Shown here piece after piece: positions 805 through 42,963 of a stretch of DNA of 58,890 nucleotides. The stretch spans positions 1 through 58,890 of the forward strand of contig DASVQK010000052.1 in NCBI GenBank assembly GCA_036389105.1, in the 5' to 3' direction. This stretch comes from Thermoleophilaceae bacterium (GTDB taxonomy: Bacteria > Actinomycetota > Thermoleophilia > Solirubrobacterales > Thermoleophilaceae). The notes below the pieces were generated by a model. It saw nothing but the letters and a program-made list of their open reading frames with translations, searched no databases and was not told where the DNA came from. The position numbers and the translations under genes were made by a program. How positions within the stretch are numbered: position 1 is the first letter of the stretch; each line of letters starts with the position of its first letter.

Positions 805-844
805 ATGCCGGAGGCCGGGATCGAACCGGCCATACCGCGATTCA
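805..844 (-). other. Orphan tRNA 3'-half-like fragment (T-arm, acceptor 3' strand, discriminator A) with no 5' half
   Basis: The reverse complement reads CTGAATCGCGGTATG-GCCGG-TTCGATC-CCGGC-CTCCGGC-A. The T-arm is perfect, but there is no complementary GCCGGAG acceptor strand or D-arm upstream. It has the same orientation as tRNA-Phe at 42891-42963 and is 30/37 identical to its 3' half by manual count. Confidence 0.6.
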
Positions 845-958
845 GAGGCACGCTGGCGGCCGCTTCGGGGCGCGAATCCCAGCACACGAGGTTGAGATAT
901 CCCTGGATTGCTGGGAATATCTCGATTCGCTCGACTCAGGCCGAGGGGAAAGGCTGGG

Positions 959-1303
959 ATGGCAAGGATCAGGTGTCTGTTCGCGGCAAGCGCGCTCGTG
1001 GCGGTGACCGCGGTCACCCTGTCTTCGCCGACGCAGGCGCACAACCGGTGCGTGTACCACGGGGCCGACGTCGCCTGCGTGTTCGACGACCACTCCAGCA
1101 TCGCGGTGTGCGACAGGGAGCGCGACGGCCACTACGTGCGCGCGCAGTACCACCTCTATTTCAACCCCGCGCGCCAGTACGGCCCATGGGACCGCAGCGG
1201 TGCGGACTATCCCTGCTCCCGGCGCCGGCACTCTCCGGGAGCGATCACCTGGTTCCGGCTGTGCGAGGTTCACGCCGGCTGTTCCCGCTGGAAGAAGGCG
1301 TAG
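959..1303 (+). CDS. Small secreted Cys-containing protein of unknown function; paralog of 38739-39074
   Basis: ATG 959 follows GAGGGGAAAGG. Signal peptide MARIRCLFAASALVAVTAVTLSSPTQAH. It shares the motifs CDxExDGHxVRA and FRLCExxxGCxxW with the 38739 protein. Confidence 0.8.
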   Translation: MARIRCLFAASALVAVTAVTLSSPTQAHNRCVYHGADVACVFDDHSSIAVCDRERDGHYVRAQYHLYFNPARQYGPWDRSGADYPCSRRRHSPGAITWFRLCEVHAGCSRWKKA

Positions 1304-1471
1304 CGCGCGGCGTCGCAGATCTGGAACCCGAGCTACGCGTTCGCGTATCCCGCGATCGGCGCGAACCCCAGGGGCGACGCCGGCATGTCCCTCGAGTACG
1401 GCGGCGGGGGCAACTACGAGAACCACGTCGTCGGCTTCTGGGGCGACTTCGTCGTCTTCGGCCGGCCGTAA
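1304..1471 (+). pseudogene. Coding-like C-terminal gene remnant with no start codon
   Basis: The high-GC3 frame reads QIWNPSYAFAYPAIGANPRGDAGMSLEYGGGGNYENHVVGFWGDFVVFGRP and ends at TAA 1469-1471. There is no start codon, and it begins directly after the TAG of the preceding gene in the same frame. Confidence 0.35.
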
Positions 1472-1760
1472 AGGCGCGAAGCGCGCGTCACGCCAAGACG
1501 CGCGACCGGTGTCTACCTCGCCTGCCCTACGTGCTGGTCACCGCCCCGTTCTTCGCGCAGCCCGCCGTGTGCCGACGGTCGTCAACGTCGGGCCGGTACC
1601 GGTGGGCGAGATCCGGTCGCGCACGGTGACGGTGACGTTCCAGCCCCCGGGCAGCGGGATCCGGGAGCCCACGCTCACGATCACCAGCTCGGCTTCCGGG
1701 AGCCCCCACTCGAGCGGGCTCCTTCGGCAAAGGGCCGGGCGGGTTCTGAGCGCGGCGCGT

Positions 1761-4253
1761 GTGCCCGCCGCCCGGATCCCGGCCCTCGCGGCCCTGGCGC
1801 TCGTCGCCTTCGCCTGCGCGCCGCCGGCCCGCGCGGCGACGGACCTGGCGGCGAGCGCTCCGGGCGGCGCGCGGGTGACGATCGAGCGCAACCCGCTGCG
1901 CGTCTCGTTCGTCGACGCCTCCGGCCGGACGGTCCTGCGCCAGGCCGCCCCGGCCGGCGGGTCCGCGATCGTCGCGCCCGCCCCGGAGGTCCAGTTCGGC
2001 ACGCAGGGCCCGCCGCCGCCCGCGCTGTACGCGCCGTTCGCCTTCCTGGTCGGCTCGCACAGCGTCGGCCAGACGCCCGGCGGTCAGTGGCAGGGCACCC
2101 TCCAGCGGGTGACCGAGGGCGGCACCGTCTACGCGGCGACGAAGGTCCTCGCGGCCACGAAGGCCGGCCCGACCGTGCGCCTGACGCTGGCCACCAGCGA
2201 CCCCTCGGGGCGGAGGCTGTCCGTGACGATCGCGCCGCGAGGCCCCGCGCTCGGCGTCTCTGTGCGCCCGGTGCCGGCGACCGGCGTGGCCGCGATGGCC
2301 GACGCGTTCGCGTCCTCTCCGGAGGAGGCCTTCCACGGCTTCGGCGGCCGCCACGACGCTGTCGACGCGCGCGGCACGGAGTTCTTCACCTACCTCCAGC
2401 AGGAGAACGTCGGCTCGGGCAGCGCCAGCGGCGTGACGGCGCCGGCCACACCGGGCCGCGACCGCTACATGTTTCCCAACGGCCCGTACGCCACCTACTA
2501 CGCGCAGAGCCAGTTCATCTCGTCGGGCGGCTACGGGTTCTGGCTCGATCGCGACGAGATCGCGCGCTGGCGGATGGGCTCGGACCGCCCCGACGCGTGG
2601 CACGTCGAGGTCGCGGGCCCGGCGCTCGACTACGTGGTGGCGCCCGCCGGCGCGGCGCGCGCGATCGGCACCCTGACGCGGCTCACAGGCCGGCAGCCCG
2701 TGCCGCCGGAGTGGGCGCTCGGGACGATCCTCGACCGCGAGGTCCGCTACCCGACCGACGACGCCGACCAGCATCAGGCCGAGATCGCGTCGGACCTCGC
2801 GGGCATCGACCGCTACGGCGTCAGGCTCGACGGCTACCGGATCGAGGGCGCGGCCCAGCTACCGGCCGACGTGCTGGCCCGCGACTTCGCCGAGCTGAGG
2901 CGGCGCGGCATACACCCGATGGTCTACTTCCGCGGGTTCGTCGGCAAGGACACGATCGGCACCGACGACCCGGAGGCCTACGACGAGGCGCTCGCGAAGG
3001 GCTACGTGGCCACCCACGCCGACGGCTCGCCGTACACGTTCACGTCGAACTTCAACGCCGACGGAGCGGTGATCGACTTCACCCACCCCGGCGCCGCCGC
3101 GTGGTGGCAGGCGCGTGTCCGCAGGGCGCTGGACCTCGGCGCCGACGGCTTCATGCAGGACTTCGGCGAGCAGGTGTTCGACGACATGCGCTTCCACGAC
3201 GGGTCGACCGGAGCTCAGATGCACAACCGCTTCCCGATCCTCTTCCACCGCGCGACCGCGCGGGCAGTGGACGCCTACCGGCGCGAGCACCCCTCGCGAA
3301 GGATCTTCTACTACACGCGCGCGGGCTACTCAGGCTCGGCCGCGTTCGAGCCGGGCAACTTCCCGGGCGACGAGACGACCGACTGGACGCGGTCCTCGGG
3401 CCTCGCCTCGCAGACGACCGACATGCTCAACCGCGCCGTGGGCGGCGCCTACGGCTTCACCACCGACATCGGCGGCTACTTCGACGTCGGTCCGTACCAG
3501 GCGACCACCAAGGAGCTGTTCGCCAGGTGGGCCGAGTGGGCCGCCCTGTCGCCGTTCTTCCGGGTGCACGGCTCGGTCGCGGCGGGAACGCACACGCCGT
3601 GGAGCTACGACGCCGAGACGCTCGGCATCTACAAGGCGATGGCGGCCCTACACCTGCGCGCGCGCCCGCGGCTGCTCGCGCTCTGGCGCGAGGCCGAGCG
3701 GACCGGGGTCCCGCCCACGCGGCCGCTGTGGTTCGAGTTCCCCGGCGATGCGCGGGCCGCGCGGGAGGAGCAGGAGTGGATGCTCGGCCCCGACGTTCTC
3801 GTCGCGCCGGTCGTGGACGAGGGAGCGAGCGCGGTCGACGTGTACTTCCCGAGCGGCTGCTGGGAGGCCGGCGACACCGCAGAGCGCTACTCCGGCCCCG
3901 CCGGCATTCGGGTGCAGGCGCCGCTCGCGAGGCTGCCGTACTTCTTCAGGTGCGGTACCCAGCCGTTCGGCGCGGCCGGGTGCCCGCGGGAGCCGAAGCG
4001 GTCGTTCTGGATCCACCAGCCGCGCCACGGGCGGATCGTGCGCGTCGCCGCGTTCGTCAACGGCCGGCGCGTCAAGGTCGTGCGCGGCCACCGCGTCACG
4101 CGACTCGTGCTCGCCCGCCTGCCGAAGGGGCGCGTCACGGTCCGGATCGTCGCCACCAGCGCGCGCGGTCAGCGAACGATCAGCGTGCGCAGGTATCGGG
4201 ATTGCCGCAAGGGGCGGCCCCGCACGCGCGTGCACCGGCGCGGGCGCCGCTGA
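1761..4253 (+). CDS. Secreted glycoside hydrolase family 31 (alpha-glucosidase/alpha-xylosidase-like) with extra C-terminal domain
   Basis: GH31-type stretches are present: GYGFWLDRDE, PPEWALG, GADGFMQDFGE, FPGDETTDW, TDIGGYF. The signal-like N-terminus VPAARIPALAALALVAFACAPPARA starts at in-frame GTG 1761. The track ORF start at 1200 is rejected. Confidence 0.85.
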   Translation: MPAARIPALAALALVAFACAPPARAATDLAASAPGGARVTIERNPLRVSFVDASGRTVLRQAAPAGGSAIVAPAPEVQFGTQGPPPPALYAPFAFLVGSHSVGQTPGGQWQGTLQRVTEGGTVYAATKVLAATKAGPTVRLTLATSDPSGRRLSVTIAPRGPALGVSVRPVPATGVAAMADAFASSPEEAFHGFGGRHDAVDARGTEFFTYLQQENVGSGSASGVTAPATPGRDRYMFPNGPYATYYAQSQFISSGGYGFWLDRDEIARWRMGSDRPDAWHVEVAGPALDYVVAPAGAARAIGTLTRLTGRQPVPPEWALGTILDREVRYPTDDADQHQAEIASDLAGIDRYGVRLDGYRIEGAAQLPADVLARDFAELRRRGIHPMVYFRGFVGKDTIGTDDPEAYDEALAKGYVATHADGSPYTFTSNFNADGAVIDFTHPGAAAWWQARVRRALDLGADGFMQDFGEQVFDDMRFHDGSTGAQMHNRFPILFHRATARAVDAYRREHPSRRIFYYTRAGYSGSAAFEPGNFPGDETTDWTRSSGLASQTTDMLNRAVGGAYGFTTDIGGYFDVGPYQATTKELFARWAEWAALSPFFRVHGSVAAGTHTPWSYDAETLGIYKAMAALHLRARPRLLALWREAERTGVPPTRPLWFEFPGDARAAREEQEWMLGPDVLVAPVVDEGASAVDVYFPSGCWEAGDTAERYSGPAGIRVQAPLARLPYFFRCGTQPFGAAGCPREPKRSFWIHQPRHGRIVRVAAFVNGRRVKVVRGHRVTRLVLARLPKGRVTVRIVATSARGQRTISVRRYRDCRKGRPRTRVHRRGRR

Positions 4254-25283: not shown

Positions 25284-25322
25284 GCGGGATACCCGACCTG
25301 AACGGGTCGTGGTCCCGGGACC
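25284..25322. repeat. Possible diverged fourth copy of the GACCTGAA...GGTCCC palindromic repeat
   Basis: Sequence GCGGGATACCCGACCTGAACGGGTCGTGGTCCCGGGACC. The GACCTGAA and GGTCCC blocks have spacing similar to the copies at 36309 and 38123. It contains the 12-nt palindrome GGTCCCGGGACC. Confidence 0.3.
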
Positions 25323-29043: not shown

Positions 29044-29098
29044 CCGCGCAGCTGCTGTCGATACACCCCGCCGGCGGACGACGAAGGCTGACTGCCTC

Positions 29099-31488: not shown

Positions 31489-31845
31489 ATGTCGCTTCTG
31501 ATCGTCAATGCCGCGTCGGAGGACACAATCGCGGGCCCCGGCAACCGCAGCCCCAACTACGTCGTCGTTTCGGTCACCGACTCCGTTGGCACACCCGTGA
31601 CCGGGCTCGTGCAGAGGGACTTCCAGGTCCAGCCCATACTCAGGGCGCCGGGCGGAACGCTGGTTAACATCGAGAAGTTCGCGGAGTCGGGGGCCGGGCT
31701 TCCGGGCTACTACATCCTCTATCTGGTACCGGTCATGACCGATGTTCAGACCGGTACGTGGAAGGCTGGGACCTACGTGTTCGGCGTCTCCGTCACGCGC
31801 GGCACGGACAGGGGCCAGAACCTCGCGTCCGTCCTGATGGACTGA
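31489..31845 (+). CDS. Small leaderless beta-rich protein, function unknown
   Basis: ATG 31489 follows the strong SD AAGGAGGAG. The 118-aa protein has no signal peptide. Its hydrophobic/polar alternation looks Ig-like (YVVVSVTD, YILYLVPV, YVFGVSVT). Confidence 0.7.
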   Translation: MSLLIVNAASEDTIAGPGNRSPNYVVVSVTDSVGTPVTGLVQRDFQVQPILRAPGGTLVNIEKFAESGAGLPGYYILYLVPVMTDVQTGTWKAGTYVFGVSVTRGTDRGQNLASVLMD

Positions 31846-31863
31846 TTTGCAGCGGCTCCAGAG

Positions 31864-31904
31864 AATGGCGAGTGCCGGAATCGAGCGCTGACTGAAAAAT
31901 CGTG
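31864..31904 (-). other. Rearranged tRNA-Phe-derived scar
   Basis: 31864-31884 AATGGCGAGTGCCGGAATCGA matches the antisense 3' end of tRNA-Phe at 20/21 positions. 31890-31904 GACTGAAAAATCGTG resembles the Phe anticodon arm but in the opposite orientation, with one extra A. Confidence 0.6.
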
Positions 31905-31915
31905 CGGCTGAGCGG

Positions 31916-33766
31916 CTAGGGCAGCCGGTACGTCCGCCGGCGGCCGTTCTTCAGCCACGAGAGAACCGAGCCGTTCAGCCGCAGCGACGCGGGGTCGATG
32001 CCGCGGCCGCGGTCGACCACCTTCTTCGCGCGTGTGTATGCGTCGGCGACCCAGACGCGGTCCCGCGAGCCGGGATGCACGCAGGTCGGCTCCCGCTCGT
32101 TCGAGAACGATCCGTCCTCCGGGCAGGTGATGAAGCCGAGCGCGCCATCGCGCCGCAGGCGAAGGCTTCCAACCTTCACCGTGTCCGACGTCGACTCCTG
32201 GACGATCAGCCCGCCGTTGCGGGCCGAGGACTGGTCGCGGAGATCGGTGACATCGACGATCGTCGCGCACGTCTCGATGTCGCAGCTTTCGAAGGCGGAC
32301 CCGACCAACGGGCCCGCGATCGACACGGCCGGTCCGTCGTACACGCCGTCGCCGACGCCGAGCTCGATCGGGACCCCGCGCGCGTAGAGGCAGCCGTAGG
32401 CGTAGCCGCGGTTCCATCCGCGCACCACCTCATACACGCGCACCCGCTTGGTCTTGACGAGCCTGCGCGTCTTCTTCGGCGAGCACGCGCTCGGCGGTGC
32501 CTCCCTGATCCAGGCCCTCCGCCGTGCAAGCGTGATCGCCGGGCCCGCGCCCTCCGCGCCGAACGAGCGCAGCCGCTCGAGCGCGCGCTCGCCGTTCGAC
32601 TCCTCCCAGCCCGTCGTAGCGCGGCCGGTCCCGTCGAGGATCAGCCCGGTGGAGCGGACGACGTCGACGAAGGGCGCAGCTTCGAACAGATCGAACGGGC
32701 CGCCGACACGACCGTCCGCGCTCCGGTAGGCGCCCCGGATCGCACGGCCCTCGCTCCAGACGAAGGCAGCGTCGCCGTTCGGGCCGAGCGCGGCGGTCGC
32801 GTCGCCCGGGGAGCCGCTGGCGCCCCCGTTCTGGATCGTGGTGCGCTCGAACTCGCCGCCGAACCGTCGGATCGCGGCGCGCAGCCGGTACGGCTTGCCC
32901 GACACCCAGGTGATCATCGCGGCCCCGTCGTCCTTCAGGCTCACCGTGCGGACATAGGCAGTGCCCTCGCCAGGCTGCGTCGCCGCCAACGGCGCTCCGA
33001 AGGCACTGCCCGGTGGGCGCTCGCTGACCAGGAGGCCGGTGGGGGAGGTCCAGGTGACCAGCGCGCCACCCGGGCCGTTGACGGCGAGGTCGAAGCTCTG
33101 CGTGTCCTCCTCCGGCGCCGAGAGCGTCTGGGCGGGGCCGAACGTCTCGTCGGGGGCCCGTGTGGCCGCCATGACCTTCGACTTGCCGTCGAAGGCGCGC
33201 CAGACGACGGTCGCGGTCCCGTCGTCGGCGAGCCCGACGTCGTAGCCGCCGTAAATGACCCGGTTGCCCGCCGGCTCGAACGCGAACGACGGGGTGAACT
33301 CGCCGCCCGCAGGGCGGAACGCCATCCGGATCCCGCCGCGCAGGCCGGCCAGCTCGGGTCCCCAGATCGCGACGGCGTCGCCGCGTACGTTGACGGCGAC
33401 GCGCGGGCGCCCGACCCGCACCTTGTGCGAGAGGGTGACGCGCGGCCCGAAGTCGCCGCCGGCGGGGCGGAAGGAGGCCAGGAGCGCGTCGGATCCCGAG
33501 TGCCCGACGGCGACGGCGTCGCCTCCACTCCCCATGGCCGCCTGGCTGAACGTGGCGCCGAGCGCGGGCAGCAGAGCCGGCGGGCCGAACTGGCCGGAAC
33601 CGGTGCGCGCTGAGACCTCAGTCGGGCGCGGGTAGTGCTCGCGAGCCTTGAAGAACAGGAGCGCGTCGCCGCGGTCGTTTCCCACCAGCGCCATGGCCGA
33701 CGCCGCACTCGGGCAGGCCAGCACGGCGAGCGCGATCAAGACTGCGATTGAGCTGGCGCGGCGCAT
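31916..33766 (-). CDS. Secreted repeat protein (beta-propeller-like repeats ending in W), function unknown
   Basis: Signal peptide MRRASSIAVLIALAVLACPSAASA. Recurring motifs: AVAIWG, ATVVWRAF, ALVTWTS, AMITWVS, AAFVWSE. It resembles the 5322-6593 protein in style. Confidence 0.8.
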   Translation of the reverse strand: MRRASSIAVLIALAVLACPSAASAMALVGNDRGDALLFFKAREHYPRPTEVSARTGSGQFGPPALLPALGATFSQAAMGSGGDAVAVGHSGSDALLASFRPAGGDFGPRVTLSHKVRVGRPRVAVNVRGDAVAIWGPELAGLRGGIRMAFRPAGGEFTPSFAFEPAGNRVIYGGYDVGLADDGTATVVWRAFDGKSKVMAATRAPDETFGPAQTLSAPEEDTQSFDLAVNGPGGALVTWTSPTGLLVSERPPGSAFGAPLAATQPGEGTAYVRTVSLKDDGAAMITWVSGKPYRLRAAIRRFGGEFERTTIQNGGASGSPGDATAALGPNGDAAFVWSEGRAIRGAYRSADGRVGGPFDLFEAAPFVDVVRSTGLILDGTGRATTGWEESNGERALERLRSFGAEGAGPAITLARRRAWIREAPPSACSPKKTRRLVKTKRVRVYEVVRGWNRGYAYGCLYARGVPIELGVGDGVYDGPAVSIAGPLVGSAFESCDIETCATIVDVTDLRDQSSARNGGLIVQESTSDTVKVGSLRLRRDGALGFITCPEDGSFSNEREPTCVHPGSRDRVWVADAYTRAKKVVDRGRGIDPASLRLNGSVLSWLKNGRRRTYRLP

Positions 33767-33853
33767 CCCTCGCTGTCCCGCTAACCCCGAACCTGACCGT
33801 CCGTTGCGGATAAGCGGGGCTCGCCCACCGTCCGATAGGCGCCCGCCCGCCTC

Positions 33854-34825
33854 CTAGGGCAGGTACGGCCAGCCGCTCGCGCTCCAACCCATGTAGTTTA
33901 TCCCCAGGAAGGACGTGTAGTTAAAGCGCCGGTCGTAGTAGTGGTAGACGAGCAGGTCGGAGTCGTCCGCCGGGTCGTACACGGGGTTCGGGCCGCCCGG
34001 TCCCGCGTAGTCGCCGTGCGGCGCGAGGACGGTCTTCCCGCCGCCCGAGAGCATGCCGGTCCCCGCGTCGTCCACGTACGGGCCCGTCGGCGAGGTGGAG
34101 CGCCCGACCCGGATGCGCTGGGTCGGCGGGCTGGCTCCGAGGAGCGGCGGGCAGCAACTCCCGTACGCCGCGAAGAGGTAGTAGTAGCCGTCGTGGTAGT
34201 AGAGGGCGGGCGCGGTGATCGCGCCGTCGGTGGCGGTGGCCACCTTCACGGGCGACACGCCGCTCTTCACCTTCCCGGTGGACGGGTCGAGCTCGACCAC
34301 GTGCACGCCGCGCGAGACGTTGCCGAAGGTGAGCCACCAGCGGCCGCTCGGGTCCACGAGCAGGTCCGGGTCGATCGCGTTGTACGCCGACCCGGAGTTC
34401 GAGTCGATCACCATCCCCCGGTCGACCCAGCTTCGCGGCTCGGCCGTCGCGCTCGTCGCCAGGCCGATGGCCATGGTCGACCCGGTGGTCGTGGCGGCGG
34501 TGTAGTACATCCAGTAGCGGCCGTCGCGGAACGTGACCTCCGGCGCCCACATGTCGCCGTTGCCGTAGGGGCGGGTCCACTCGGGGACCGGCTGAAGCGG
34601 GCCCTCGAGGCTGATCCACGCCGTGCGGTCGGTCGAGATGCGCGCCTGGTTGTGGGTCGAGAAGAGCATGTACCGCGGTGTGACCCCGCGAGCGACGAGC
34701 GACGGGTCGTGAACCGGGGCGTCGCCCACGGCGAGGCGCGGGTTCGGGTACTGCGCGGCCGCCGGCGCCGCGGCGGCGAGCGCGGCCAAGACGGCGAGCG
34801 CCGACATCGCCCCGCGCCGGCTCAT
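33854..34825 (-). CDS. Secreted glycoside hydrolase family 43 (arabinanase-like)
   Basis: Signal peptide followed by VHDPSLV, MWAPEV..DGRYWMYY, NAIDPDLLVD..GRWWLTFG, APALYYHDGYYYLF. This is the GH43 five-bladed propeller pattern. Confidence 0.85.
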   Translation of the reverse strand: MSRRGAMSALAVLAALAAAAPAAAQYPNPRLAVGDAPVHDPSLVARGVTPRYMLFSTHNQARISTDRTAWISLEGPLQPVPEWTRPYGNGDMWAPEVTFRDGRYWMYYTAATTTGSTMAIGLATSATAEPRSWVDRGMVIDSNSGSAYNAIDPDLLVDPSGRWWLTFGNVSRGVHVVELDPSTGKVKSGVSPVKVATATDGAITAPALYYHDGYYYLFAAYGSCCPPLLGASPPTQRIRVGRSTSPTGPYVDDAGTGMLSGGGKTVLAPHGDYAGPGGPNPVYDPADDSDLLVYHYYDRRFNYTSFLGINYMGWSASGWPYLP

Positions 34826-35799
34826 TCGACCACTGGCCAGCCGCCGTCCCAGCGCAGGTTGTTGATGCCCAGGAACGAGGTGTAGTTCAGCCGCGAGTCG
34901 TACCAGTGGTAGACGAGCAGGTCGCGGTCCGTGTTCGGGTCGTGCACGACGGTCTGGCCGCCCGGCCCGACCACGTGGGCGTGCTGACTCAGGACCGGCG
35001 AGCTGCCGCCGCCGGTCATCGCCGTGCCGTTCCTGTCCACGTACGGCCCGGTCATCGAAGTCGAGCGGCCCACGCGGATCTCATAGGTCGGCCTCGAAGG
35101 GTTGATCAGCGCTGGGCAGCACGAGCCGTAGGACGCGAACAGGTAGTAGAAGCCGTCGCGCTTGAAGACGTACGCGCCCTCGATCGCGCTGCCCGAGGCG
35201 GGCTTGGCGAGGTGGATCGGGCTCGCGCCGCTCTTCACCTTTCCCGTCGACGGATCGAGCTCGATCGTGTAGATCCCGTTCCAGTACGAGCCGAAGGTGA
35301 GCCACCAGCGCCCGTCGTCGTCGACAAGCAGCGCAGGGTCGATCGCGTTGTACGGGTCGCCCTCGCGGCTCGCCAGCACGAGGCCCTTGTCCGTCCACGA
35401 CTGCGGCTCGGCGGTGAGGCTCGTGGCCAGGCCGATCGCCGAGTGCTGGCTTCCGACGCTCGACGGCGCGTAGTACATCCAGTAGCGCCCGTCGTGGTAG
35501 GAGACGTCGGGGGCCCAGTAGTTGCCGTTGCCGTACTGGCGCGTCCACTCCGGCACCGGGTCGAGCGGCCCTGGCCCGCGTACCCAGACGGTGCGGTCGG
35601 CCGAATAGCGCACCTGGTTGTGAGTGGAGAACAGCGCGTAGCGCGGCGTCCCGTTGCGGACCACGAGTGAGGGGTCGTGAGTCTGGGCGTCGCCGACGGC
35701 GGCCTGCGGCATCGGGAATTGGGCGCCGGCGGGGGCGGCGGCCGCGAGCGCGACGAGCGCCGCGAGCGCGAACGACAGCCTCAGGCCCCCCAGCCGCAT
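34822..35799 (-). CDS. Secreted glycoside hydrolase family 43; tandem paralog
   Basis: Same motif set as the neighbouring gene (THDPSLV, YWAPDVSYHDGRYWMYY, NAIDPALLVDDDGRWWLTFGS, GAYVFKRDGFYYLF). Its stop overlaps the downstream start (ATGA). Confidence 0.85.
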   Translation of the reverse strand: MRLGGLRLSFALAALVALAAAAPAGAQFPMPQAAVGDAQTHDPSLVVRNGTPRYALFSTHNQVRYSADRTVWVRGPGPLDPVPEWTRQYGNGNYWAPDVSYHDGRYWMYYAPSSVGSQHSAIGLATSLTAEPQSWTDKGLVLASREGDPYNAIDPALLVDDDGRWWLTFGSYWNGIYTIELDPSTGKVKSGASPIHLAKPASGSAIEGAYVFKRDGFYYLFASYGSCCPALINPSRPTYEIRVGRSTSMTGPYVDRNGTAMTGGGSSPVLSQHAHVVGPGGQTVVHDPNTDRDLLVYHWYDSRLNYTSFLGINNLRWDGGWPVVE

Positions 35800-35925
35800 G
35801 ACGGCGGGTATACCATGGCTCGCTCGCTGGAGCGATCACACGGCAAGAGGCTTCTCCGTGAGGAGCTCGGGCACGAACGGGAGCGCCAGCGCTACTTCAC
35901 GGAGGTCGTGACCAACCGCACCACT

Positions 35926-36075
35926 TAGTGGGTGCCGTGGAGGGGCGCGGCGGTGCCAACCGCGCGATGCCCCCCCACAAACCGGCCGTCCCACTGGATC
36001 GCGACGCCGCCGGTCCCGTCCGACTTGCCGAAGTCGGTCACCAGCTTGGTCGGAGTCGTCGTGAGCGGTTTGGGA
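35926..36075 (-). pseudogene. C-terminal gene remnant abutting palindromic repeat copy A
   Basis: The reverse frame reads ..TPTKLVTDFGKSDGTGGVAIQWDGRFVGGHRAVGTAAPLHGTH and then stops. The upstream part is replaced by the repeat at 36067 and the tRNA scar at 36160. Confidence 0.3.
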
Positions 36076-36108
36076 CCAGAAACTTCAGTTTGGTCCCAAA
36101 CGGGCGCC
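36067..36108. repeat. Palindromic repeat copy A
   Basis: An 11-bp stem: GTTTGGGACCA (36068-36078) pairs with TGGTCCCAAAC (36091-36101). The tail ACGGGCGCC is shared with copies B and C. Confidence 0.75.
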
Positions 36109-36159
36109 TACACCCAGCGCCGATCGCCCGCAAAACACCACCATATGCAGGAGTTCTGT

Positions 36160-36204
36160 AAATGGCGAGGGCCGGAATCGAACCGGCGACAGCACGATTT
36201 TCAG
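36160..36204 (-). repeat. attR-like duplicate of the tRNA-Phe 3' half (45 bp)
   Basis: AAATGGCGAGGGCCGGAATCGAACCGGCGACAGCACGATTTTCAG is identical to 42888-42932 at 44/45 positions (G vs C at one site). Homology ends inside the anticodon loop. Confidence 0.9.
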
Positions 36205-36212
36205 GGACACGC

Positions 36213-36239
36213 GGTTTCGCGACGACACGTCGCGAAACC
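36213..36239. repeat. Perfect 12-bp hairpin immediately inside the island boundary
   Basis: GGTTTCGCGACG-ACA-CGTCGCGAAACC, located 9 nt after the att-like repeat. Confidence 0.6.
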
Positions 36240-36275
36240 CCAAATGCGCGCCGTCACTCTTAGGTCGGCGCGGGC

Positions 36276-36357
36276 TGGATAGCCGCGGATTTACCGGGGA
36301 TCTCCGCGGGTTTGGGACCTGAAGCTGCATGCCAGGTCCCGATGCCCCACGGGCGCC
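36276..36357. repeat. Palindromic repeat copy B (extended form)
   Basis: TGGATAGCCGCGGAT..GGTTTGGGACCTGAAGC..CAGGTCCC..ACGGGCGCC. It has an 8-bp stem GGGACCTG/CAGGTCCC. It aligns with copy C over about 80 nt, including the upstream TGGATA-CC-GCGGAT block. Confidence 0.75.
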
Positions 36358-36721
36358 CGAAGCAGCGACGGCGAAGGGAGAAACCGCGCCATCGAGACCT
36401 CCGAGGCATGTCCTCTCGACGGGACCCCGCGGGTGTCAGCTCGACGCGCGACCCGCACTTCTGGCTCAAGAGCCCAGCAAAGCGTGCGTGGTCGAGTCGC
36501 CGAAGCTCGGGGCGGCTCGTGACGCCACCCCAGGGCGCGTCGGAGGTCGCGGCTCGCGGAACGTCAATACGGGGACGAGCGAAAGGCCTCGGCGCCACCG
36601 CCGGCCGCGACTTGGCATCCGGTACGGCGGGCTCCCACGACGACCCGGTGCATCGCATGGCGACGGCGCTCCCCTTACGCCCGATCACCCACGGGCTGCC
36701 ATGGGCGAGCCGCCGACCGGT

Positions 36722-37903
36722 TCACCCGGCGGGCCCGTCGAACGCGAAGAAGTTGTTCCCGGACCAGCCGAGTTGCCAGTACCAGCTGATCCACGTGTTC
36801 GGCTCCGTGCGCGTGTCGAAGTACGTGTCCTGGCGGCAGTCGATCGCGACCGGGTTCGAGCTCGGACACGTCCCCTCGTGGTAGTACTGCCCCGGGTACA
36901 TGCCACCGTCGTCGTAGCACATGACGTCGATGCCGTCGGCGCAGTGGCTGTTCTTCGTTCCCTGCGGGGCGGTGACGTTGACCGCGCCGAGCGTGTGGAA
37001 CAGCTCATGCATCGGCACGTACGTGTGCCAGGTGCCCGGCTCTGCGTCGGTGCGCCCGCGCCACACCACGGAGTACATGGACGTCGTGTTGTTCCAGTTG
37101 TTCGCGCTCCGGTTCCACGCCCCCATCGCGTCCTGGCAGTAGCACTCGCCGATGCCGGCGGCTTGGCCCGAGCCGAACTGGGGGTACACGCCGTGGTCGT
37201 AGAAGATGAGGTACTTGCGCGGACCGCTGCCGTAGCACTGAGGCTGGCCCGTGCAGAAGCCGGCGTCTATCGCCGCCTGCCTGACCGCGGCGAAGGTGTT
37301 CGCCCCATAGTTGACGAACGCGGGCAGGCGGACGCTGACCTCGTCGTTGTAGCAGGGCGTCCTGATCTGCGCCGCCGGCCCGCCGCTGTTGAGCGCCGCC
37401 GCCCTGAGTGCGGCGTTCATTCGCCATAGCGCGTTGTTGATCGTGGGATAGAACTCGTCGCGCCGGTACGGGCTCGACGCGTGCCGGCCGTACAGGACCA
37501 CGATGCTGTTCACGTCTGGACCGTAGGAAATGCAGTACGGGGTATCGCCGAGGCCCCCAGGCAGCTGGTAGTTGGCGCCCGGCATGGCGACCGGGTCGGG
37601 CCCGTGCGTCATCGACAGCTCGCCGTCGCGCGCGCGCAGCAGGTACGACCCGCTCGGCAGCCGCCGGGCGGTGCCGAGGCCGTCCACCCGCCCGAACCCG
37701 CGCGTGCTCGGCGCCGCGCCGAGCGGCCGCGCCGGCGACCGGTTACGCGCGCCGACCGCCTTGAGCGCGGCCTCCAGCTCTCCGGTCGACTGTGGGGCCG
37801 CGGGCGGCGGTGTGGCCTGGCCCGGCCCGGCTGCGGCGCTGGCGAGAACGGCGAAGGCGGCAGCGACCCCCGCTGTGACTGAGGCGATGCGACTGGTGCG
37901 CAT
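36722..37903 (-). CDS. Secreted Cys-rich HExxH protein (putative zinc metalloprotease, family unassigned)
   Basis: ATG 37903 follows GGGAAGGA. Signal peptide MRTSRIASVTAGVAAAFAVLASAAAG. HELFHTLG motif, with many Cys residues. Confidence 0.75.
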   Translation of the reverse strand: MRTSRIASVTAGVAAAFAVLASAAAGPGQATPPPAAPQSTGELEAALKAVGARNRSPARPLGAAPSTRGFGRVDGLGTARRLPSGSYLLRARDGELSMTHGPDPVAMPGANYQLPGGLGDTPYCISYGPDVNSIVVLYGRHASSPYRRDEFYPTINNALWRMNAALRAAALNSGGPAAQIRTPCYNDEVSVRLPAFVNYGANTFAAVRQAAIDAGFCTGQPQCYGSGPRKYLIFYDHGVYPQFGSGQAAGIGECYCQDAMGAWNRSANNWNNTTSMYSVVWRGRTDAEPGTWHTYVPMHELFHTLGAVNVTAPQGTKNSHCADGIDVMCYDDGGMYPGQYYHEGTCPSSNPVAIDCRQDTYFDTRTEPNTWISWYWQLGWSGNNFFAFDGPAG

Positions 37904-38090
37904 GGTCCTTCCCTTCTGGACTTGCGCTACGGCAACCGCAGCGTCAGCCAGCTAATCCCCTCGCCTCATCGGCCTTGAGGACACGAGAAGGGTTGAGCCC
38001 TACAGCGAGTCCGTCCGAGTACGAACGTAGATCCGCCGCGACTGGCTGTCAAGCCCCGGAATCGGAGACCGGTCTCGGCGTCGACGTGCG

Positions 38091-38170
38091 TGGATACCTG
38101 CGGATACCCGCAGTTGCCCTTGGGTTTGGGACCTGAAGCGGCCCCTCTGGTCCCAATGACCTACGGGTGC
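38091..38170. repeat. Palindromic repeat copy C (extended form)
   Basis: TGGATACCTGCGGAT..GGTTTGGGACCTGAAGC..GGTCCCAA..ACGGGTGC. It has an 8-bp stem TTGGGACC/GGTCCCAA. It is in direct orientation with copy B, and its tail supplies the stop codon of the transposase fragment. Confidence 0.75.
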
Positions 38171-38376
38171 ACGGACAGCGGCAGCGCCCGGTTCAGCGCC
38201 GCGAGCAGCATGCGATCAGCCGGGCTGGGCTGCGGCCGCCCGAGCTGACGGCGCGCGATCGTGAGCTCGTGCCGGAGCACCAAGATCTCGAGCTCCTTGT
38301 GGTCGCTCGAGCGCATCCGCAGCGCGAGCAGCTGAAACGTCCCGCATAGCCCCCGGTAAAGCAACGCCCAGAGCAC
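38161..38376 (-). pseudogene. N-terminal fragment of an integrase-core (IS481/IS3-like) transposase
   Basis: VLWALLYRGLCGTFQLLALRMRSSDHKELEILVLRHELTIARRQLGRPQPSPADRMLLAALNRALP matches the common N-terminal pattern of actinobacterial rve-type transposases. It is cut off after about 68 aa. Confidence 0.6.
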
Positions 38377-38501
38377 ACAGCACCTCCCAGGTAGCCCAGC
38401 ATGAAGCGCGGCAAGCTACCGACGCCGCCGTCACGTCGCGCGCTCAGGCCGAGCGCGGAATCGACTTTTCGAACCCTACGGGGGGTACATGTCAGCGGGT
38501 G

Positions 38502-38624
38502 CTGCGCTTGGACGTCACGCCGGACTACCTGACGATCAACGCCTAGCGCGTGACCGGCTGGCGTTACGACGAGAAGAATCCGCCGCGCGAGGGCTGCGTG
38601 CGGATCAAGCTCCGGGAACAGTAA
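38502..38624 (+). pseudogene. Remnant copy of the 3' end of the membrane phosphoesterase gene
   Basis: It is 105/123 nt identical to 27953-28075 by manual codon-by-codon count. It reads LRLDVTPDYLTINA*RVTGWRYDEKNPPREGCVRIKLREQ*, with an in-frame TAG at 38544-38546. Confidence 0.85.
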
Positions 38625-38738
38625 GTAGCCCTTGGCGGACTCAAAAATAGTCCGTCCGGGAGATGTTCTGCGAGATCGCATGGCCTAGCGTCGCTGATGC
38701 CCACCACGCCGATCGGCGTATGTCAATAAGGAGGAAGC

Positions 38739-39074
38739 ATGATTAGGAAGTTCGCGCTCGCGGCGCTGCTGACGGCTGCGCTCATAGCCATTGTCGCGGT
38801 TCCCGCGCTGGCTCACGAGGTGAAGATCTGGCACGGGGATGACACTTCCCGTGTTTGGGACACCCACACCCAAATCAACGCGTGCGATCACGAAGCAGAC
38901 GGCCACGGTGTCAGAGCGCATTGGAGGGACTCCGCCGGCAACATCAGCGTGGGTGATTGGGACCCGGATGGCTCGGGCGGGCCAGCGTGCGGCACGGATA
39001 ACCTTCCCAGCAGCGCGGTTCAGTTCCGCCTGTGTGAGAATGAGGTCGGCTGCACGGAGTGGTCGAACAAGTAG
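38739..39074 (+). CDS. Small secreted Cys-containing protein; paralog of 959-1303
   Basis: ATG follows AAGGAGGAAG. Signal peptide MIRKFALAALLTAALIAIVAVPALAH. Motifs ACDHEADGHGVRAHW and FRLCENEVGCTEW. Confidence 0.8.
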   Translation: MIRKFALAALLTAALIAIVAVPALAHEVKIWHGDDTSRVWDTHTQINACDHEADGHGVRAHWRDSAGNISVGDWDPDGSGGPACGTDNLPSSAVQFRLCENEVGCTEWSNK

Positions 39075-39391
39075 TGATGAAGAGTTGAGCGGCGGGGGCG
39101 GCGCGCTCAAAGGTGCCGCCCGCGGCCCTATGGCCAGTCGTGTCGCTTCTGCGTAATAACGGGCTGATGGCACTCGCCGCCGCGTGCTCTTCCGCTTTAC
39201 GATCGCCTACGCGTCGACCTCACGCGCTTGGCAGCCACGACGCTCGACTATGCCAAACAAGACGCAGTCCTGTCGGACACAGTACATGGCTAGATGTGCT
39301 TGACGTAATCGCGTCTTATCGAGCGCTGCGCCTCTAAGCGGCCAGGGACGTGGTCGCCACGTCACTGGAGCGTGCCCCCAGACGAGCCGCT

Positions 39392-39796
39392 CTACGAAAC
39401 GCCGGCCTTGCGCTGGTGCTTCGCGGCGAGCTGCGGGTTTGAGCCTTCCTGATGCGGATCGTAGTACTGGTACTCGAACGCGACGGCGTCTCCGGCGTTC
39501 AAGATGGTGGTGTCAATTCCCGTCTCGCTCGACGTGCCATTGACAAAGAACTCCCAGTAGACGCCCGGCTGGTCGCCGATCTGCTCGATCTCCTCGAGGA
39601 AGTACCCCCATGACTCGCCGTAGTAGGCGACAGAGAAACCATAATTCTGGTCCGTACGAAGGTTGTAGGCACCCTCGAGCGCCTGCTGCGCGTTCATGCC
39701 GTTCGTCCAGGGCACGCCCTGGACGTCGACGATCGTGTTTCCGAGAATCGTCGCGCTCACGGACACCGTGTTGCCGTTACTCACTGCCTCCCCCAT
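39392..39796 (-). CDS. DUF4430-like protein
   Basis: WGYFLEEIEQIG..GVYWEFFVNGTSSETGIDTTILNAGDAVAFEY matches the DUF4430 pattern (W-x-Y/F-x-VNG..G....L..GD.I.F.Y). No signal peptide. More A/T-rich by eye. Confidence 0.6.
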   Translation of the reverse strand: MGEAVSNGNTVSVSATILGNTIVDVQGVPWTNGMNAQQALEGAYNLRTDQNYGFSVAYYGESWGYFLEEIEQIGDQPGVYWEFFVNGTSSETGIDTTILNAGDAVAFEYQYYDPHQEGSNPQLAAKHQRKAGVS

Positions 39797-40245
39797 TCCT
39801 CGCTCCAGACACTCTAGCCACTTTTAGCGCGCCGAACCGGTTGCTGTCCCTCGGTCGGTTGGGTGGGCTGATCGAGCAGGTCCGCGTCGATCACCCCGCC
39901 CGTGGACGCCAGCATGGCAAGCGCGCTAGCAGCTGTTCTGCGCAATCGCGAGGAAGACCACGGAGAAAGGCGTGTGGCGGTGCGCTCAGCGCTTGCTTAT
40001 GAAGAACGAGAGGATCCTAAGCGAGCGGAATCCGCCGGCGCTGCTCAATCAGGACCGTTCGAAGCCAGAGCGCGTCGTGTAGAACCGAATGGCGGGCCGA
40101 ACGGCGGGAGTAGCTGAGGCGATCCCGTAGCCACTCGGCCTCTGAGGCTCATATCGAGCCCGCACCGCGGGTCCGGTCGCAGGGCTCACACCTAGCTAAG
40201 GCCGTGGCCGCGTTATGCCTCGTCCGCCATTCGGGTGGATCCACC

Positions 40246-40455
40246 TCAGCCGCCACGCTTGATGCGGAACTTCCCCGGCTCGGTGCGCTCGACGAAACGG
40301 CCCCGCTTCGCGTTCACCGCGAGCTGGGCGGCGAGGGTCTGCTCCGGCGTCTTGCCCTTGAGGCCCGGGGCGAGCTTGCGCTCGCGGATCTCCGCGTAGA
40401 TCTCGCCCGCCGTCATCGGGTTGCGCTTGCCGCGCAACACCTCCATCGCCGCCAT
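40246..40455 (-). CDS. Small winged-helix (HARE-HTH/Mrr_N-like) protein
   Basis: PMTAGEIYAEIRERKLAPGLKGKTPEQTLAAQLAVNAKRGRFVERTEPGKFRIK is a pattern common in phage and plasmid small wHTH proteins. The N-terminus is uncertain. Confidence 0.5.
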   Translation of the reverse strand: MAAMEVLRGKRNPMTAGEIYAEIRERKLAPGLKGKTPEQTLAAQLAVNAKRGRFVERTEPGKFRIKRGG

Positions 40456-40542
40456 ATCGTCGAGCCCTCGCGTGGCCCGCGCTGCGCGGCCTTCGGCTTG
40501 GCGCCGTCTTCGGCTTCGGCTTCTGTTACGTACTTGTGTTGC

Positions 40543-40845
40543 TCACTGCTCCTCCTTCGGGTCCTTTTGTTCTGGCGGCAGGTCGAGCTGGTCGATCAGC
40601 ACCGAGTGATCGACCCGCCATCCCTCCGGCGTGCGGTGCTTGTCCTGCTCGATCCGCCCCGTCACGCCGATGCGGTCGCCGCGCCGGAGCTGCTCGGCGC
40701 AATCGCGCGCCTCGAGCCCGAACGTGGTGACCGCGACGTAGACGACGCCCGGCTCTCGCCGGTCGCCGCTGGCGTGCCGCGGCACGGCGAGCCGCATCCG
40801 GCAGCGGACCGGCTCGGCGCCGTCCTCGTGTAGCTCGGGGGGCAC
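40543..40845 (-). CDS. ssb: Single-stranded DNA-binding protein-like OB fold, 5'-degenerate
   Basis: PPELHEDGAEPVRCRMRLAV..VYVAVTTFGLEARDCAEQLRRGDRIGVTGRIEQDKHRTPEGWRVDHSVLIDQLDL aligns with the SSB core. The canonical MNxVxLxGRL first strand is missing or unrecognisable, and only a GTG start is available. Confidence 0.55.
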   Translation of the reverse strand: MPPELHEDGAEPVRCRMRLAVPRHASGDRREPGVVYVAVTTFGLEARDCAEQLRRGDRIGVTGRIEQDKHRTPEGWRVDHSVLIDQLDLPPEQKDPKEEQ

Positions 40846-40957
40846 AGGACGCCGAAACGCGCGACTGCCTAGATGCCGCTCAAGCGCGCCGGCCTCGCTG
40901 TCGTAGGCGCGATGAGCACCCGCGTAAGATCACTTGAGTGGCCCGGGCAGGTGAAGC

Positions 40958-41287
40958 GTGAACCGTATCGCCGCTGCCGCTGCCAGCTTCGGCCTCATGG
41001 CACTCGCCGGGGTATGGGGAGGGCTTGCCTTCCTTGTTCTGGGCTATCGAATTGACGACTACTGCGAGGACGCGGACATCTGCACCGACGCCGCGCCAAT
41101 CCGAGCGTGCGCGCAGCTCCTGATCGCGATCGTCGGTGTCGTCTCGACGTTTCAGCTTGCAGGCGCGGGTGTCCGCTACGCGTCGACGGGTGAAACGCCG
41201 GGCGAGAAGGTCCGCCGCCGGGTCGTCCCGGCGGGGGCCTCTCTCGTCCTGTGGCTCCTCATCGTGGGGACGCTCAGATTTCCGTGA
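40958..41287 (+). CDS. Small membrane protein (3 predicted helices)
   Basis: GTG start. Hydrophobic segments: AAAASFGLMALAGVWGGLAFLVLGY, AQLLIAIVGVVSTFQLAG, ASLVLWLLIVGTL. Confidence 0.45.
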   Translation: MNRIAAAAASFGLMALAGVWGGLAFLVLGYRIDDYCEDADICTDAAPIRACAQLLIAIVGVVSTFQLAGAGVRYASTGETPGEKVRRRVVPAGASLVLWLLIVGTLRFP

Positions 41288-41604
41288 CCCGCGCCGGGCG
41301 TGTGCGGGTGCCGTCCGGCTGAACGACGCGGACGGCCCGCAGCACGTCGTACCCCTGGCGGCGAACCTCGGTTGGTCCGACCCCCGACGACACCAGGATC
41401 GCCCAAGGACTGCGTGTTGTCCCCCGCGGCGAAGCGGTAGTAGTAGATCCGCTTGATCCCGAGCCGGTCGTAGCGGGGGTCATCGAGGAGACTGGTGACG
41501 AATCGCACCCCCTCGCACTGCTCCCAGTCGTCCGCCTTGAGCACCTGCCTGAAGCGCGGGAGGTGCTTCCTCGGGATGGCCCTCTTCGTCACGGTGAACT
41601 CCAC
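41274..41604 (-). pseudogene. Frameshifted small ORF
   Basis: Frame 1 reads VEFTVTKRAIPRKHLPRF..LGIKRIYYYRFAAGDNTQS. The coding-looking sequence continues in another frame as AILVSSGVGPTEVRRQGYDVLRAVRVVQPDG..VTEI*. Confidence 0.4.
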
Positions 41605-41820
41605 TGACGCACCGGTCTCCGTGAGCCAGAGACTCCTCCGTTCGAACTCTTCGTGGAAGAAGCGGAGCTCGCGTACGCCGTCGCCTCTCCCGTTGCCCCC
41701 ACGCCCGCACAGGTCGGGCTCAACGGGTCCTCCTGACCCACAGCGGCCGAGCTGCTCCGTCGAGCTATTCGCGCTTCCCGGAAACCGCGCAGGCTCAGGT
41801 CTGCTTCCCGCGCGTCCCCC

Positions 41821-42162
41821 TCACCCGCGCGAGCGTCGCCCCAGGTACAGCAAGATCAGCCCGGCTGGCAGCAGGATCACGAGCGCGTAGGTAACGGGAA
41901 TCCAGTCTTCGTCCGGTTGCTCGAGGACGTCGAGGCCAACCAGCGCGTCATACACCAGCGACATGAGGACCCATGACAGCGGCAGCAGATAACGGCCCCG
42001 ACCAAGCGGCGCCGCCCCGGCAACGATCAGTCCGGCCGCGGTCACCATCCATAGAACCGGTATGAGCGCGTTGTCGATCAGTCGTCCTCCGACGAGGACC
42101 AGCGGATAGACCGCGACGACGTACGTCCCCGCCGCCAAGACGTGGGGTCTGAGCGAAGACAC
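41821..42162 (-). CDS. Small membrane protein (3-4 helices)
   Basis: GTG start. Hydrophobic segments: VLAAGTYVVAVYPLVLVGG, LIPVLWMVTAAGLIVAGAA, LLPLSWVLMSLVYDALVGL, VTYALVILLPAGLILLYL. Confidence 0.5.
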   Translation of the reverse strand: MSSLRPHVLAAGTYVVAVYPLVLVGGRLIDNALIPVLWMVTAAGLIVAGAAPLGRGRYLLPLSWVLMSLVYDALVGLDVLEQPDEDWIPVTYALVILLPAGLILLYLGRRSRG

Positions 42163-42175
42163 AGCCTGGTCGATG

Positions 42176-42632
42176 CTAGGGCCAGGTCCTGCGGACGCGG
42201 TGATATCGGTTCTCGATCGGATACGTGTTGACGGGAGTCGTGTGATCGGCGAAGAGGCAGGCCTTGTCGGCGTTGTTGTGAGAGTGGCAGTAAAACCATT
42301 GCTCCGGGTGGCTGCGCTTGGGACGAATGGTCCGCTGTCCGTCCTTTATCACCGTTCCCGAGTTGGTGCTGCCGTCGTCGGTGTCATACCAGCCGAAGTA
42401 CTTTCTCCGGAAACTTCAGCCCGCGCCCGTTAGCGCTCCCGATCGCGAAGACCGGATCGTCTCCGTCGCTCGTCAGGTCGTCGCGATATGGGTCCGGAAG
42501 GTTCGATTTCCAGTTGCGGGACCAGTCGTCTGACCAGTTCGCCGCGCCAGGCCGCGGGTAGGCCTGCGCCACTGCGGTCCTTGTCGTGCCGCGGCTCGTT
42601 GATGACGATCTGGTCAGGGCGACCGAGTTCAT
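42176..42632 (-). pseudogene. Frameshifted ORF next to tRNA-Phe
   Basis: The upstream frame reads ..AQAYPRPGAANWSDDWSRNWKSNLPDPYRDDLTSDGDDPVFAIGSANGRGLKFPE. After a 1-nt shift near 42400-42415, the downstream frame reads KYFGWYDTDDGSTNSGTVIKDGQRTIRPKRSHPEQWFYCHSHNNADKACLF..RTWP*. Confidence 0.45.
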
Positions 42633-42890
42633 CGCGAGCTGATGTCTCCGACGCTACGGTTCTCTGGCAGGGGAGGCCCGACCTCCTGTGCCGGGCCGGG
42701 GACGTTCCAGAGCCGCCCGGCCGCTTAGCGATTGCGCGCCGACCGTAGCCCTAACCGGCTTGACGATCCAGCCGAACCAGGCGATCGGGACGTGATTGGG
42801 ACGTGGCGCGCAGAGGTTGGCGCCTAAGTCCATCTTTTCGCCGCCCGAAATCGCGCCGAAAAGTTCGCCAAGTGAAGGCACTTCACAAAA

Positions 42891-42963
42891 TGGCGAGGGC
42901 CGGAATCGAACCGGCGACACCACGATTTTCAGTCGTGTGCTCTACCAACTGAGCTACCTCGCC
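42891..42963 (-). tRNA. tRNA-Phe (anticodon GAA)
   Basis: GGCGAGG-TA-GCTC-AGTTGGTA-GAGC-A-CACGA-CTGAAAA-TCGTG-GTGTC-GCCGG-TTCGATT-CCGGC-CCTCGCC-A folds as a full 73-nt cloverleaf. CCA is not encoded. Confidence 0.95.

Follow-up and report, generated by a model that had tools for sequence, protein, structure and literature searches.

The window analyzed here is a 58,890-nt stretch of a soil metagenome contig (DASVQK010000052.1) from a Thermoleophilaceae bacterium, and the named homologs of its proteins are likewise from Thermoleophilaceae. At its left end lies a truncated LigD primase-polymerase gene (LigD-pol) and, some 42 kb further on, an intact tRNA-Phe(GAA) gene followed by a conserved block of genes. 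The DNA between the two is bounded and subdivided by short tRNA-derived fragments into segments A, B, and C (Table 1). An earlier reading of the sequence alone, hereafter the original prediction, proposed that all three segments are islands added one after another at the tRNA-Phe gene. Our analysis finds repeated site-specific integration at tRNA-Phe to be the best reading for segments B and C, about 11 kb. The 42 kb from LigD-pol to tRNA-Phe as a whole is, with a probability of roughly 60%, variable DNA specific to this lineage and has two or more histories, among them that of the tRNA-Phe array and that of a separate segment A.

Table 1. Features of the window from the left conserved flank to the right (GC3, GC content at third codon positions; core, core genes)
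Feature	Positions	Strand	Evidence
LigD primase-polymerase gene, cut by window end; left conserved flank	2-781	-	Pfam LigD_Prim-Pol, E = 1e-74
tRNA-Leu-type 3' fragment (T-arm, acceptor strand, A73)	806-830	-	25/25 to tRNA-Leu(UAA/CAA) 3' ends
Segment A1	848-25640		Pfam; GC3 0.910 vs core 0.958, p = 1e-4
Segment A2, low-GC block	25641-31863		GC 0.663, GC3 0.852, p = 4e-4 vs core
Older truncated tRNA-Phe 3'-end remnant (att scar)	31864-31884	-	20/21 identity
Segment B	31885-36159		Pfam; Phe-derived repeats at both ends
45-bp direct repeat of tRNA-Phe 3' half (distal att site of segment C)	36160-36204	-	44/45 to 42888-42932
Segment C, decayed cargo	36205-40245		Six-frame Pfam and sequence matches
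Transposase N-terminal remnant, 71 aa	38161-38376	-	Matches "integrase core domain" transposase N-termini of Streptomyces plasmids, E = 2e-7
Copy (124 nt) of the 3' end of the A2 phosphoesterase gene	38502-38625		85% identical to 27953-28076
HARE-HTH gene	40246-40455	-	Pfam; part of backbone module
Small SSB gene, 3' part	40543-40840	-	Pfam; part of backbone module
Window-specific 1754-bp insertion splitting SSB gene	40841-42594		Absent in L005, L154, L157, L159 (flanks contiguous)
First ~12 SSB codons	42595-42632	-	Aligned to relatives
Conserved non-coding arm (~255 nt) adjoining tRNA	to 42887	-	42595-42887 75-82% identical in L004, L005, L154, L155, L157, L159
tRNA-Phe(GAA), intact	42891-42963	-	ARAGORN and Rfam, 75.9 bits; CCA not encoded
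Right conserved flank	43124-58728		Pfam; synteny at 70-85% DNA identity in L003, L004, L005, L154

The tRNA-Phe gene and its partial copies

tRNA-Phe(GAA) is the only tRNA that ARAGORN and Rfam detected in the window, and the gene is 100% identical in two relatives (L004 and L005). The direct repeat at the distal end of segment C comprises an AAA flank and 42 nt of tRNA-Phe, from G34 to the 3' end; the chance of repeat matches was judged by shuffles, and none of 100 contained a match at this level. The shorter remnant between segments A and B consists of the last 21 nt of tRNA-Phe (AA plus acceptor, T-stem, and part of the T-loop), which no shuffle contained at two or fewer mismatches (0 expected by chance). 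Weaker likeness to the tRNA-Phe 3' flank (16-18 nt) continues beyond these copies to 31848 and to 36146. The original prediction had located the gene and derived both of these scars from it, which is confirmed, as is the shared polarity that it described: all copies read in the tRNA sense, and the Phe-derived ones lie, like the gene, on the minus strand.

The copies cease to be identical at the anticodon, the usual limit in tRNA att sites. The intact tRNA is regenerated at the proximal end of the array, the distal repeat is the 3' part of the same tRNA in the same sense, and the 31.9-42.9 kb interval contains at least three same-sense copies of one att core (the gene itself, 36160-36204, and 31864-31884). 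In tRNA islands with tyrosine integrases, each integration adds one core copy. Three copies therefore argue for at least two integrations, with segments B and C both element-derived. The att cores of segment C are both near-intact; the outer core of segment B is cut to 21 nt, which makes mobilization of this segment in cis unlikely.

No viral contig matched the tRNA-Phe 42-mer, and in Rfam searches, at the gathering threshold and at E <= 1, nothing matched the scars; the few weak matches, at chance level, include MIR2907 and a tmRNA fragment over the scar.

Two further features lie close to the scars. Straight after the 21-nt remnant, the sequence GCTGACTGAAAAATCGTGCGG (31886-31905) is similar to an oppositely oriented tRNA-Phe anticodon arm carrying one additional A, and may be either a rearranged piece of the same scar or a chance resemblance. 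A hairpin repeat (GGGTTTGGGACC ... GGTCCCAAAC) is present in three copies (36069-36106, 36308-36359, and 38122-38173), two of which flank the 36160 att copy and the third of which abuts a transposase stump in segment C; no copy was found in the relatives' loci.

A tRNA-Leu fragment beside LigD-pol

The fragment at the left end of segment A had also been assigned to tRNA-Phe. Aligned to that tRNA, 805-847 has an identity of 32/42, and 3/7 acceptor bases differ. Within it, 806-830, situated 25 nt before the LigD-pol start, matches tRNA-Leu 3' ends throughout, against 21/25 for the window tRNA-Phe, and all four differing positions agree with tRNA-Leu. In the tRNA sense the fragment reads GCCGG-TTCGATC-CCGGC-CTCCGGC-A, with the 3' end GCCGGTTCGATCCCGGCCTCCGGCA and, as in the window tRNA-Phe, no encoded CCA; its T-arm, acceptor, and discriminator all have tRNA-Leu identity. 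A scan of one genome per GTDB species located the 22-mer GGTTCGATCCCGGCCTCCGGCA at 48 loci, 40 of which are intact tRNA-Leu genes (30 UAA, 10 CAA) of Nitrospirota, Eisenbacteria, Clostridia, and Acidobacteriota; six tRNA-Leu 3' pieces and three chance matches were also recorded. The sole match in Solirubrobacterales is a chance, non-tRNA one. The tRNA-Phe genes of relatives retain the acceptor GGCGAGG/CCTCGCC, and a Leu-type 23-mer had no matches in viral contigs.

The 805-844 fragment thus derives from a different tRNA, a result that the original prediction had itself named as speaking against it. With a leftmost boundary repeat of tRNA-Leu type, the proposal that one tRNA-Phe gene built the whole 42 kb fails, and segment A is not shown to be a tRNA-Phe island. 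Since segment A ends at LigD-pol with a tRNA-Leu 3' fragment, it would have joined the Phe array by a separate event. A tRNA-like scar must be typed before it is assigned; here, a single scan turned Phe into Leu.

Pairs of an intact tRNA-Leu gene and a nearby 3'-half copy are present in Nitrospirota. At one locus (L113) the same tRNA-Leu 3' end occurs at 5202 and 7962, as intact gene and 3'-half copy 2.8 kb apart, and L091/L095 and L124/L131 are arranged likewise. In other phyla, then, islands appear to use this tRNA-Leu 3' end as their att site.

Segment C and its element family

The tRNA-proximal end of segment C follows a backbone order shared with relatives (L005, L154, L155, and L159): the Phe 3' half, a conserved arm (~280 nt across the family), a 111-aa SSB gene, and a HARE-HTH gene. 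In the relatives, the arm leads directly into the SSB gene and then the HARE-HTH gene. In the window, the SSB gene is interrupted after ~12 codons by the 1754-bp insertion, in which no terminal repeats and no target duplication were found. DNA identity over the HARE-HTH/SSB stretch (40246-40840) is 88% to L005 and 80% to L157, and the window aligns to L157 over 42932-42612 at 82% and 40839-40341 at 80%. The SSB family is rare, with only 65 members among 5.8 billion proteins, normally of 111 aa.

The arm contains 7-nt direct repeats, 4 nt apart, that fall into two classes. CACGTCC-N4-CACGTCC occurs in the window (42740-42765, minus strand), in L159, and imperfectly in L157, and GAGGTCC-TTTT-GAGGTCC in L004, L005, L154, and L155. 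These repeats could be protein-binding (arm-type) sites. The arm matched no Rfam family at the thresholds given above, and RNAalifold of seven arm copies found compensatory change in only 2/70 pairs, and there is therefore no case for a structured RNA. A 16-mer from the arm had 16 matches in viral contigs, none with extended similarity.

The module of tRNA-Phe, arm, SSB, and HARE-HTH is found in L005, in L154/L155, and on the P0069 contig, with different cargo in each, mostly of defence type. Precomputed Pfam annotations list HATPase, DruA, PDDEXK, and a 1863-aa helicase for L005 (1-8100), HNH, AAA_13, methylase, and NaeI for L154 (10960-20336), Vsr, methylase, and DrmE for the P0069 contig, and DndB/C/D/E-like genes for L159 (11100-20336). 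A contig of a metagenome-assembled genome (MAG), DASVWC010000105.1, holds members of this element family in a genuine tandem array. It carries two modules in the same orientation, 80 kb apart, each of which begins with a Phe 3' fragment without the tRNA 5' half. Dnd genes lie behind one module and a 318-aa tyrosine recombinase (PF00589; XerC/D-like matches below family cut-offs) behind the other. In the copy with the recombinase, that gene comes after SSB and HARE-HTH, at ~1 kb from the core, and its product is the likely integrase of the family.

No integrase was detected in the window by Pfam on all long open reading frames (ORFs), by a six-frame Pfam scan of 36205-42890, or by tblastn with the family integrase, in agreement with the original prediction; one is present in the related copy L157. 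The six-frame scan returned only DUF4430, HARE-HTH, and SSB. The cargo of segment C comprises a 393-aa secreted protein, a 111-aa ORF, and DUF4430, together with the transposase stump. Adjoining the stump is the 124-nt phosphoesterase copy, which links the two low-GC blocks, A2 and C. Inside the 1754-bp insertion, 41187-41234 (minus strand) gave a weak Guanidine-II (mini-ykkC)-like Rfam match (27.5 bits, gathering threshold 32; E = 0.16); there is no downstream transporter gene, so this match is probably due to chance.

Conserved flanks and variable interior

Relatives of LigD-pol were collected from Thermoleophilaceae-type metagenome contigs by a metagenome scan (80 loci, 84-94% amino acid identity). 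Homology to the window ends at ~778-800, the LigD-pol start, in all 80. The downstream side of the gene is common to 45 of the 53 loci compared, and over the 3 kb upstream almost all of the about 52 loci with enough sequence differ from one another. Proteins encoded at 0.8-42.9 kb have no close homolog within 10 kb of the relatives' LigD-pol, the sole matches there being 36-60% identical and in non-syntenic contexts. Across ~80 relatives, genome plasticity has a sharp limit at the LigD-pol promoter. Directly before the LigD-pol ATG, most relatives have the motif CCGTAGAACT. A tRNA is found upstream in ~5/80 loci, and its identity differs (Phe in L008, Ser in L059, Ala in L063, and Thr in L082).

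The right flank encodes glyoxalase, DUF3352, M23 peptidase, MrfA-like helicase, HAD, LtrA, GlcD/E/F-like, and binding proteins. An identical or near-identical tRNA-Phe stands beside the glyoxalase gene in L004, L005, and L154; L003 has none. Left of the tRNA, content differs from relative to relative, and none of L003, L004, L005, and L154 has that of the window beyond HARE-HTH, so that their version of this locus either lacks the island or has a different one. A scan of genome contigs for relatives with the DUF3352 protein as query yielded none.

The original prediction implied that the 0.8-42.9 kb region is not conserved and syntenic in relatives, and no examined relative has this content between LigD-pol and tRNA-Phe. 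It also looked to relatives with LigD-pol adjacent to tRNA-Phe or with subsets of the segments; relatives with the two genes near each other exist, and subsets were not found. In L044, tRNA-Phe lies 2.96 kb upstream of LigD-pol in the predicted orientation, with four ordinary genes and no integrase between them. In L008, tRNA-Phe (79-151, minus strand) is 77 nt from LigD-pol and divergent from it, and a 43-nt Phe 3'-half scar (2510-2552, plus strand) lies 2.3 kb away in inverted orientation; between tRNA and scar lie LigD-pol, an exonuclease III-like gene, and a small ORF. The gene on the tRNA 5' side in L044 is found beyond the scar in L008. L008 resembles a locus rearranged between att copies; that it is simply an inverted L044 was considered and rejected, as no single inversion yields its arrangement. 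Two loci with right-flank homologs 1.7 and 9.6 kb from LigD-pol (L051 and L063) were also rejected as evidence, because these homologs are only 55% and 69% identical and may be paralogs.

Content and composition of segments A and B

Segment A is compositionally two blocks, with a break at ~25.6 kb. By Pfam, A1 encodes GH31, I36-like, GAF-GGDEF-EAL, FIST, and ferredoxin/reductase proteins, a 1396-aa secreted FG-GAP/DUF11/LamG protein, a hydrolase, a GMC oxidoreductase, and a LuxR-AAA-TPR regulator; this content is absent upstream of LigD-pol in the 80 relatives. A2 encodes a metallophosphoesterase membrane protein, a small LuxR-type regulator, a matrixin-like secreted protein, and a 118-aa ORF. 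The best homolog of the 611-aa A2 protein is 63% identical. A 62% homolog in a Thermoleophilaceae MAG was tried as a clue to context and discarded, its neighborhood being core-like and unrelated. A 730-nt non-coding gap between divergent genes (25089-25819) lies where GC3 falls from 0.91 to 0.85, and neither in the gap nor at the A1/A2 break was a scar, tRNA-like motif, or boundary-marking repeat found.

Segment B encodes a 616-aa secreted protein and two tandem GH43 paralogs (33854-35799; 73-77% DNA identity). Its GC3 of 0.940 is not significantly different from the core value, and that of segment C is 0.850 (p = 4e-4 vs core). The differences in composition that the original prediction saw between segments hold for A1, A2, and C, not for B, and there is an extra break within A. 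PHROGs, PADLOC, and NCBIfam searches on the uncharacterized proteins of all three segments gave nothing useful.

History of the locus

The tRNA-proximal 11 kb (31864-42890) would have been built by at least two site-specific integrations into the tRNA-Phe 3' half. The attP of such an element would duplicate the tRNA sequence between the anticodon (G34) and a point 3 nt beyond the 3' end. When a tyrosine recombinase crosses attP with the tRNA gene, the incoming copy would restore a full-length tRNA and push the former 3' half outward. Segment C is a decayed member of the Thermoleophilaceae element family, its recombinase gone, its SSB gene split, and a transposase stump and gene fragment added, and segment B, enclosed by two Phe-derived copies, would be the remains of another integrated element. 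The integrase was presumably lost by deletion, which would leave the array immobile at present. Serial integration at tRNA-Phe, the central idea of the original prediction, is retained in this account for 31.9-42.9 kb, with its three att copies, and abandoned for segment A. The latter appears to be accessory DNA, with GC3 below that of the core, an internal break, and a tRNA-Leu fragment at its LigD-pol end. It may have arisen as an island, or by truncation, at a former tRNA-Leu gene beside LigD-pol, followed by deletion or rearrangement.

Several observations weigh against this history. The relatives' loci were viewed for only ~10 kb per side; among them no empty site and no segment subset was found, and the only other contigs with this arrangement, recovered by exact-protein look-ups, are identical at the junctions. 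Segment B is core-like in composition and has no mobile-element gene, and no arm-SSB-HARE module lies behind either interior scar of the window. On the tRNA-Leu side, there is no intact tRNA-Leu gene within the window and no exact GGTTCGATCCCGGCCTCCGGCA in Actinomycetota tRNAs of GTDB representatives, so the parent tRNA-Leu was not found in this lineage. Furthermore, the module diverges from its relatives much as core genes do (77-88% vs 70-85%), and could be old and vertically inherited. Vertical inheritance fits poorly with the 44/45 distal repeat, unless the repeat is recent or constrained; either segment C came recently from a related genome, or the att core is under constraint.

The last of these points is accommodated by the main alternative, a hot spot anchored by its flanks. 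Here the tRNA-Phe-arm-SSB-HARE-HTH and LigD-pol blocks would be old vertical anchors, the interior would turn over by homologous recombination with relatives' DNA, transposition, and deletion, and the Phe repeats would be ancient relics with little bearing on the present content. A module that stays constant while the cargo changes in every relative fits such turnover, as do the scarcity of tRNA genes and the unique sequence upstream of LigD-pol, and the transposase stump, duplicated gene fragment, and 1.75-kb insertion of the window. We nevertheless consider this explanation unlikely. An ancient neutral relic would not be as well preserved as the distal repeat, and a single contig contains repeated modules led by a Phe fragment, one accompanied by an integrase, which is a signature of site-specific tandem integration.

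The exact match of 806-830 to tRNA-Leu, including all four positions that differ from Phe, leaves the full model of the original prediction improbable, as random decay would hardly convert a Phe scar into an exact tRNA-Leu end. In that model, A, B, and C are successive islands at one tRNA-Phe gene and the 805 fragment is the oldest and most decayed Phe scar; it would explain the single polarity of all fragments, the contact of the 805 fragment with the start of homology to LigD-pol relatives at ~800, and the linkage of tRNA-Phe with LigD-pol in L044 and L008. The retained acceptor of the relatives' tRNA-Phe genes and the two compositional blocks of segment A, with no scar between them, also speak against it.

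A chimeric contig joining unrelated genomes at tRNA-like repeats is hardly credible even for a metagenome in which one assembly breaks between the GH43 paralogs and contigs of both end inside LigD-pol, since 140-160-nt stretches across each of the three scar junctions are identical in contigs k141_903249 and k141_123432 of a second assembly (ENA ERZ27253120), the repeats, at 21-45 nt, do not reach read length, and flanking genes on both sides show the same lineage affinities. Of the two breaks, that between the paralogs (window 33854-35799) occurs in the ENA assembly; the ends inside LigD-pol perhaps arise because many co-occurring relatives share this gene.

Beyond the reading of B and C as a tRNA-Phe array joined to a separate segment A, a broader proposal may be put forward tentatively. 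An undescribed family of Thermoleophilaceae elements, defined by an arm with class-specific 7-nt repeats, the 111-aa SSB, and HARE-HTH, might use tRNA-Phe as its site, its module outlasting the integrase while successive defence islands pile up there into arrays of at least 80 kb. The window might then be a decayed array that a rearrangement has joined to a tRNA-Leu island, on the border of a hypervariable zone whose start coincides exactly with the promoter of the non-homologous end joining (NHEJ) polymerase gene.

Comparison with known systems

Island accretion at tRNA genes is textbook knowledge, so the finding is in itself ordinary; it opens no long-standing question, and its added value is modest. 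For the little-studied Thermoleophilaceae, the results sketch an integrative-element family for the first time, comprising att core, arm, SSB-HARE-HTH, candidate integrase, and defence-type cargo.

Integrated elements are known to contain defence-island hot spots, as in P2/P4 satellites and the SXT integrative conjugative element (ICE). The relatives resemble these in having a fixed module followed by varied predicted defence genes (DruA, DrmE, Dnd, restriction-modification, and AAA_13). The window differs, as PADLOC found no defence match in its cargo beyond LuxR-HTH cross-matches.

Actinomycete integrative conjugative elements (AICEs) of the pSAM2 and SLP1 type integrate into tRNA genes. Common to these and the present family are an Actinomycetota host, an att site of ~45-60 bp over the tRNA 3' end, and a tyrosine recombinase in the family. 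In contrast, the conserved module here is SSB plus HARE-HTH, and the cargo in relatives consists of predicted defence genes. Rep or FtsK-like Tra genes were seen neither in the window nor in the 10-kb views of relatives, so that the element is not an AICE, as far as seen.

tRNA islands with tyrosine (P4/lambda-type) integrases are well known, and include the tRNA-Phe (pheV/pheU) hot spots of Enterobacteriaceae. As in such islands, the window repeat is the 3' part of the tRNA from the anticodon loop, the tRNA is regenerated, composition deviates from the core, and content varies among relatives. Unlike the pheV/pheU islands, the window has no integrase beside its tRNA, and its host is Thermoleophilaceae-like.

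In Streptococcus thermophilus, ICESt1/ICESt3 illustrate how integrative elements and integrase-less cis-mobilizable elements (CIMEs) accumulate in tandem at a single att site. The target in that system is the 3' end of a protein gene, in contrast to the tRNA-Phe 3' half used here; the outermost fragment of the window comes from another tRNA, one interior att copy is cut to 21 nt, and no conjugation module was seen. It is the 31.9-42.9 kb interval only that is an accretion array of this kind. As in ICESt1/ICESt3, same-sense att copies bound adjacent segments, some of them without an integrase, and a related array elsewhere (DASVWC010000105.1) has one.

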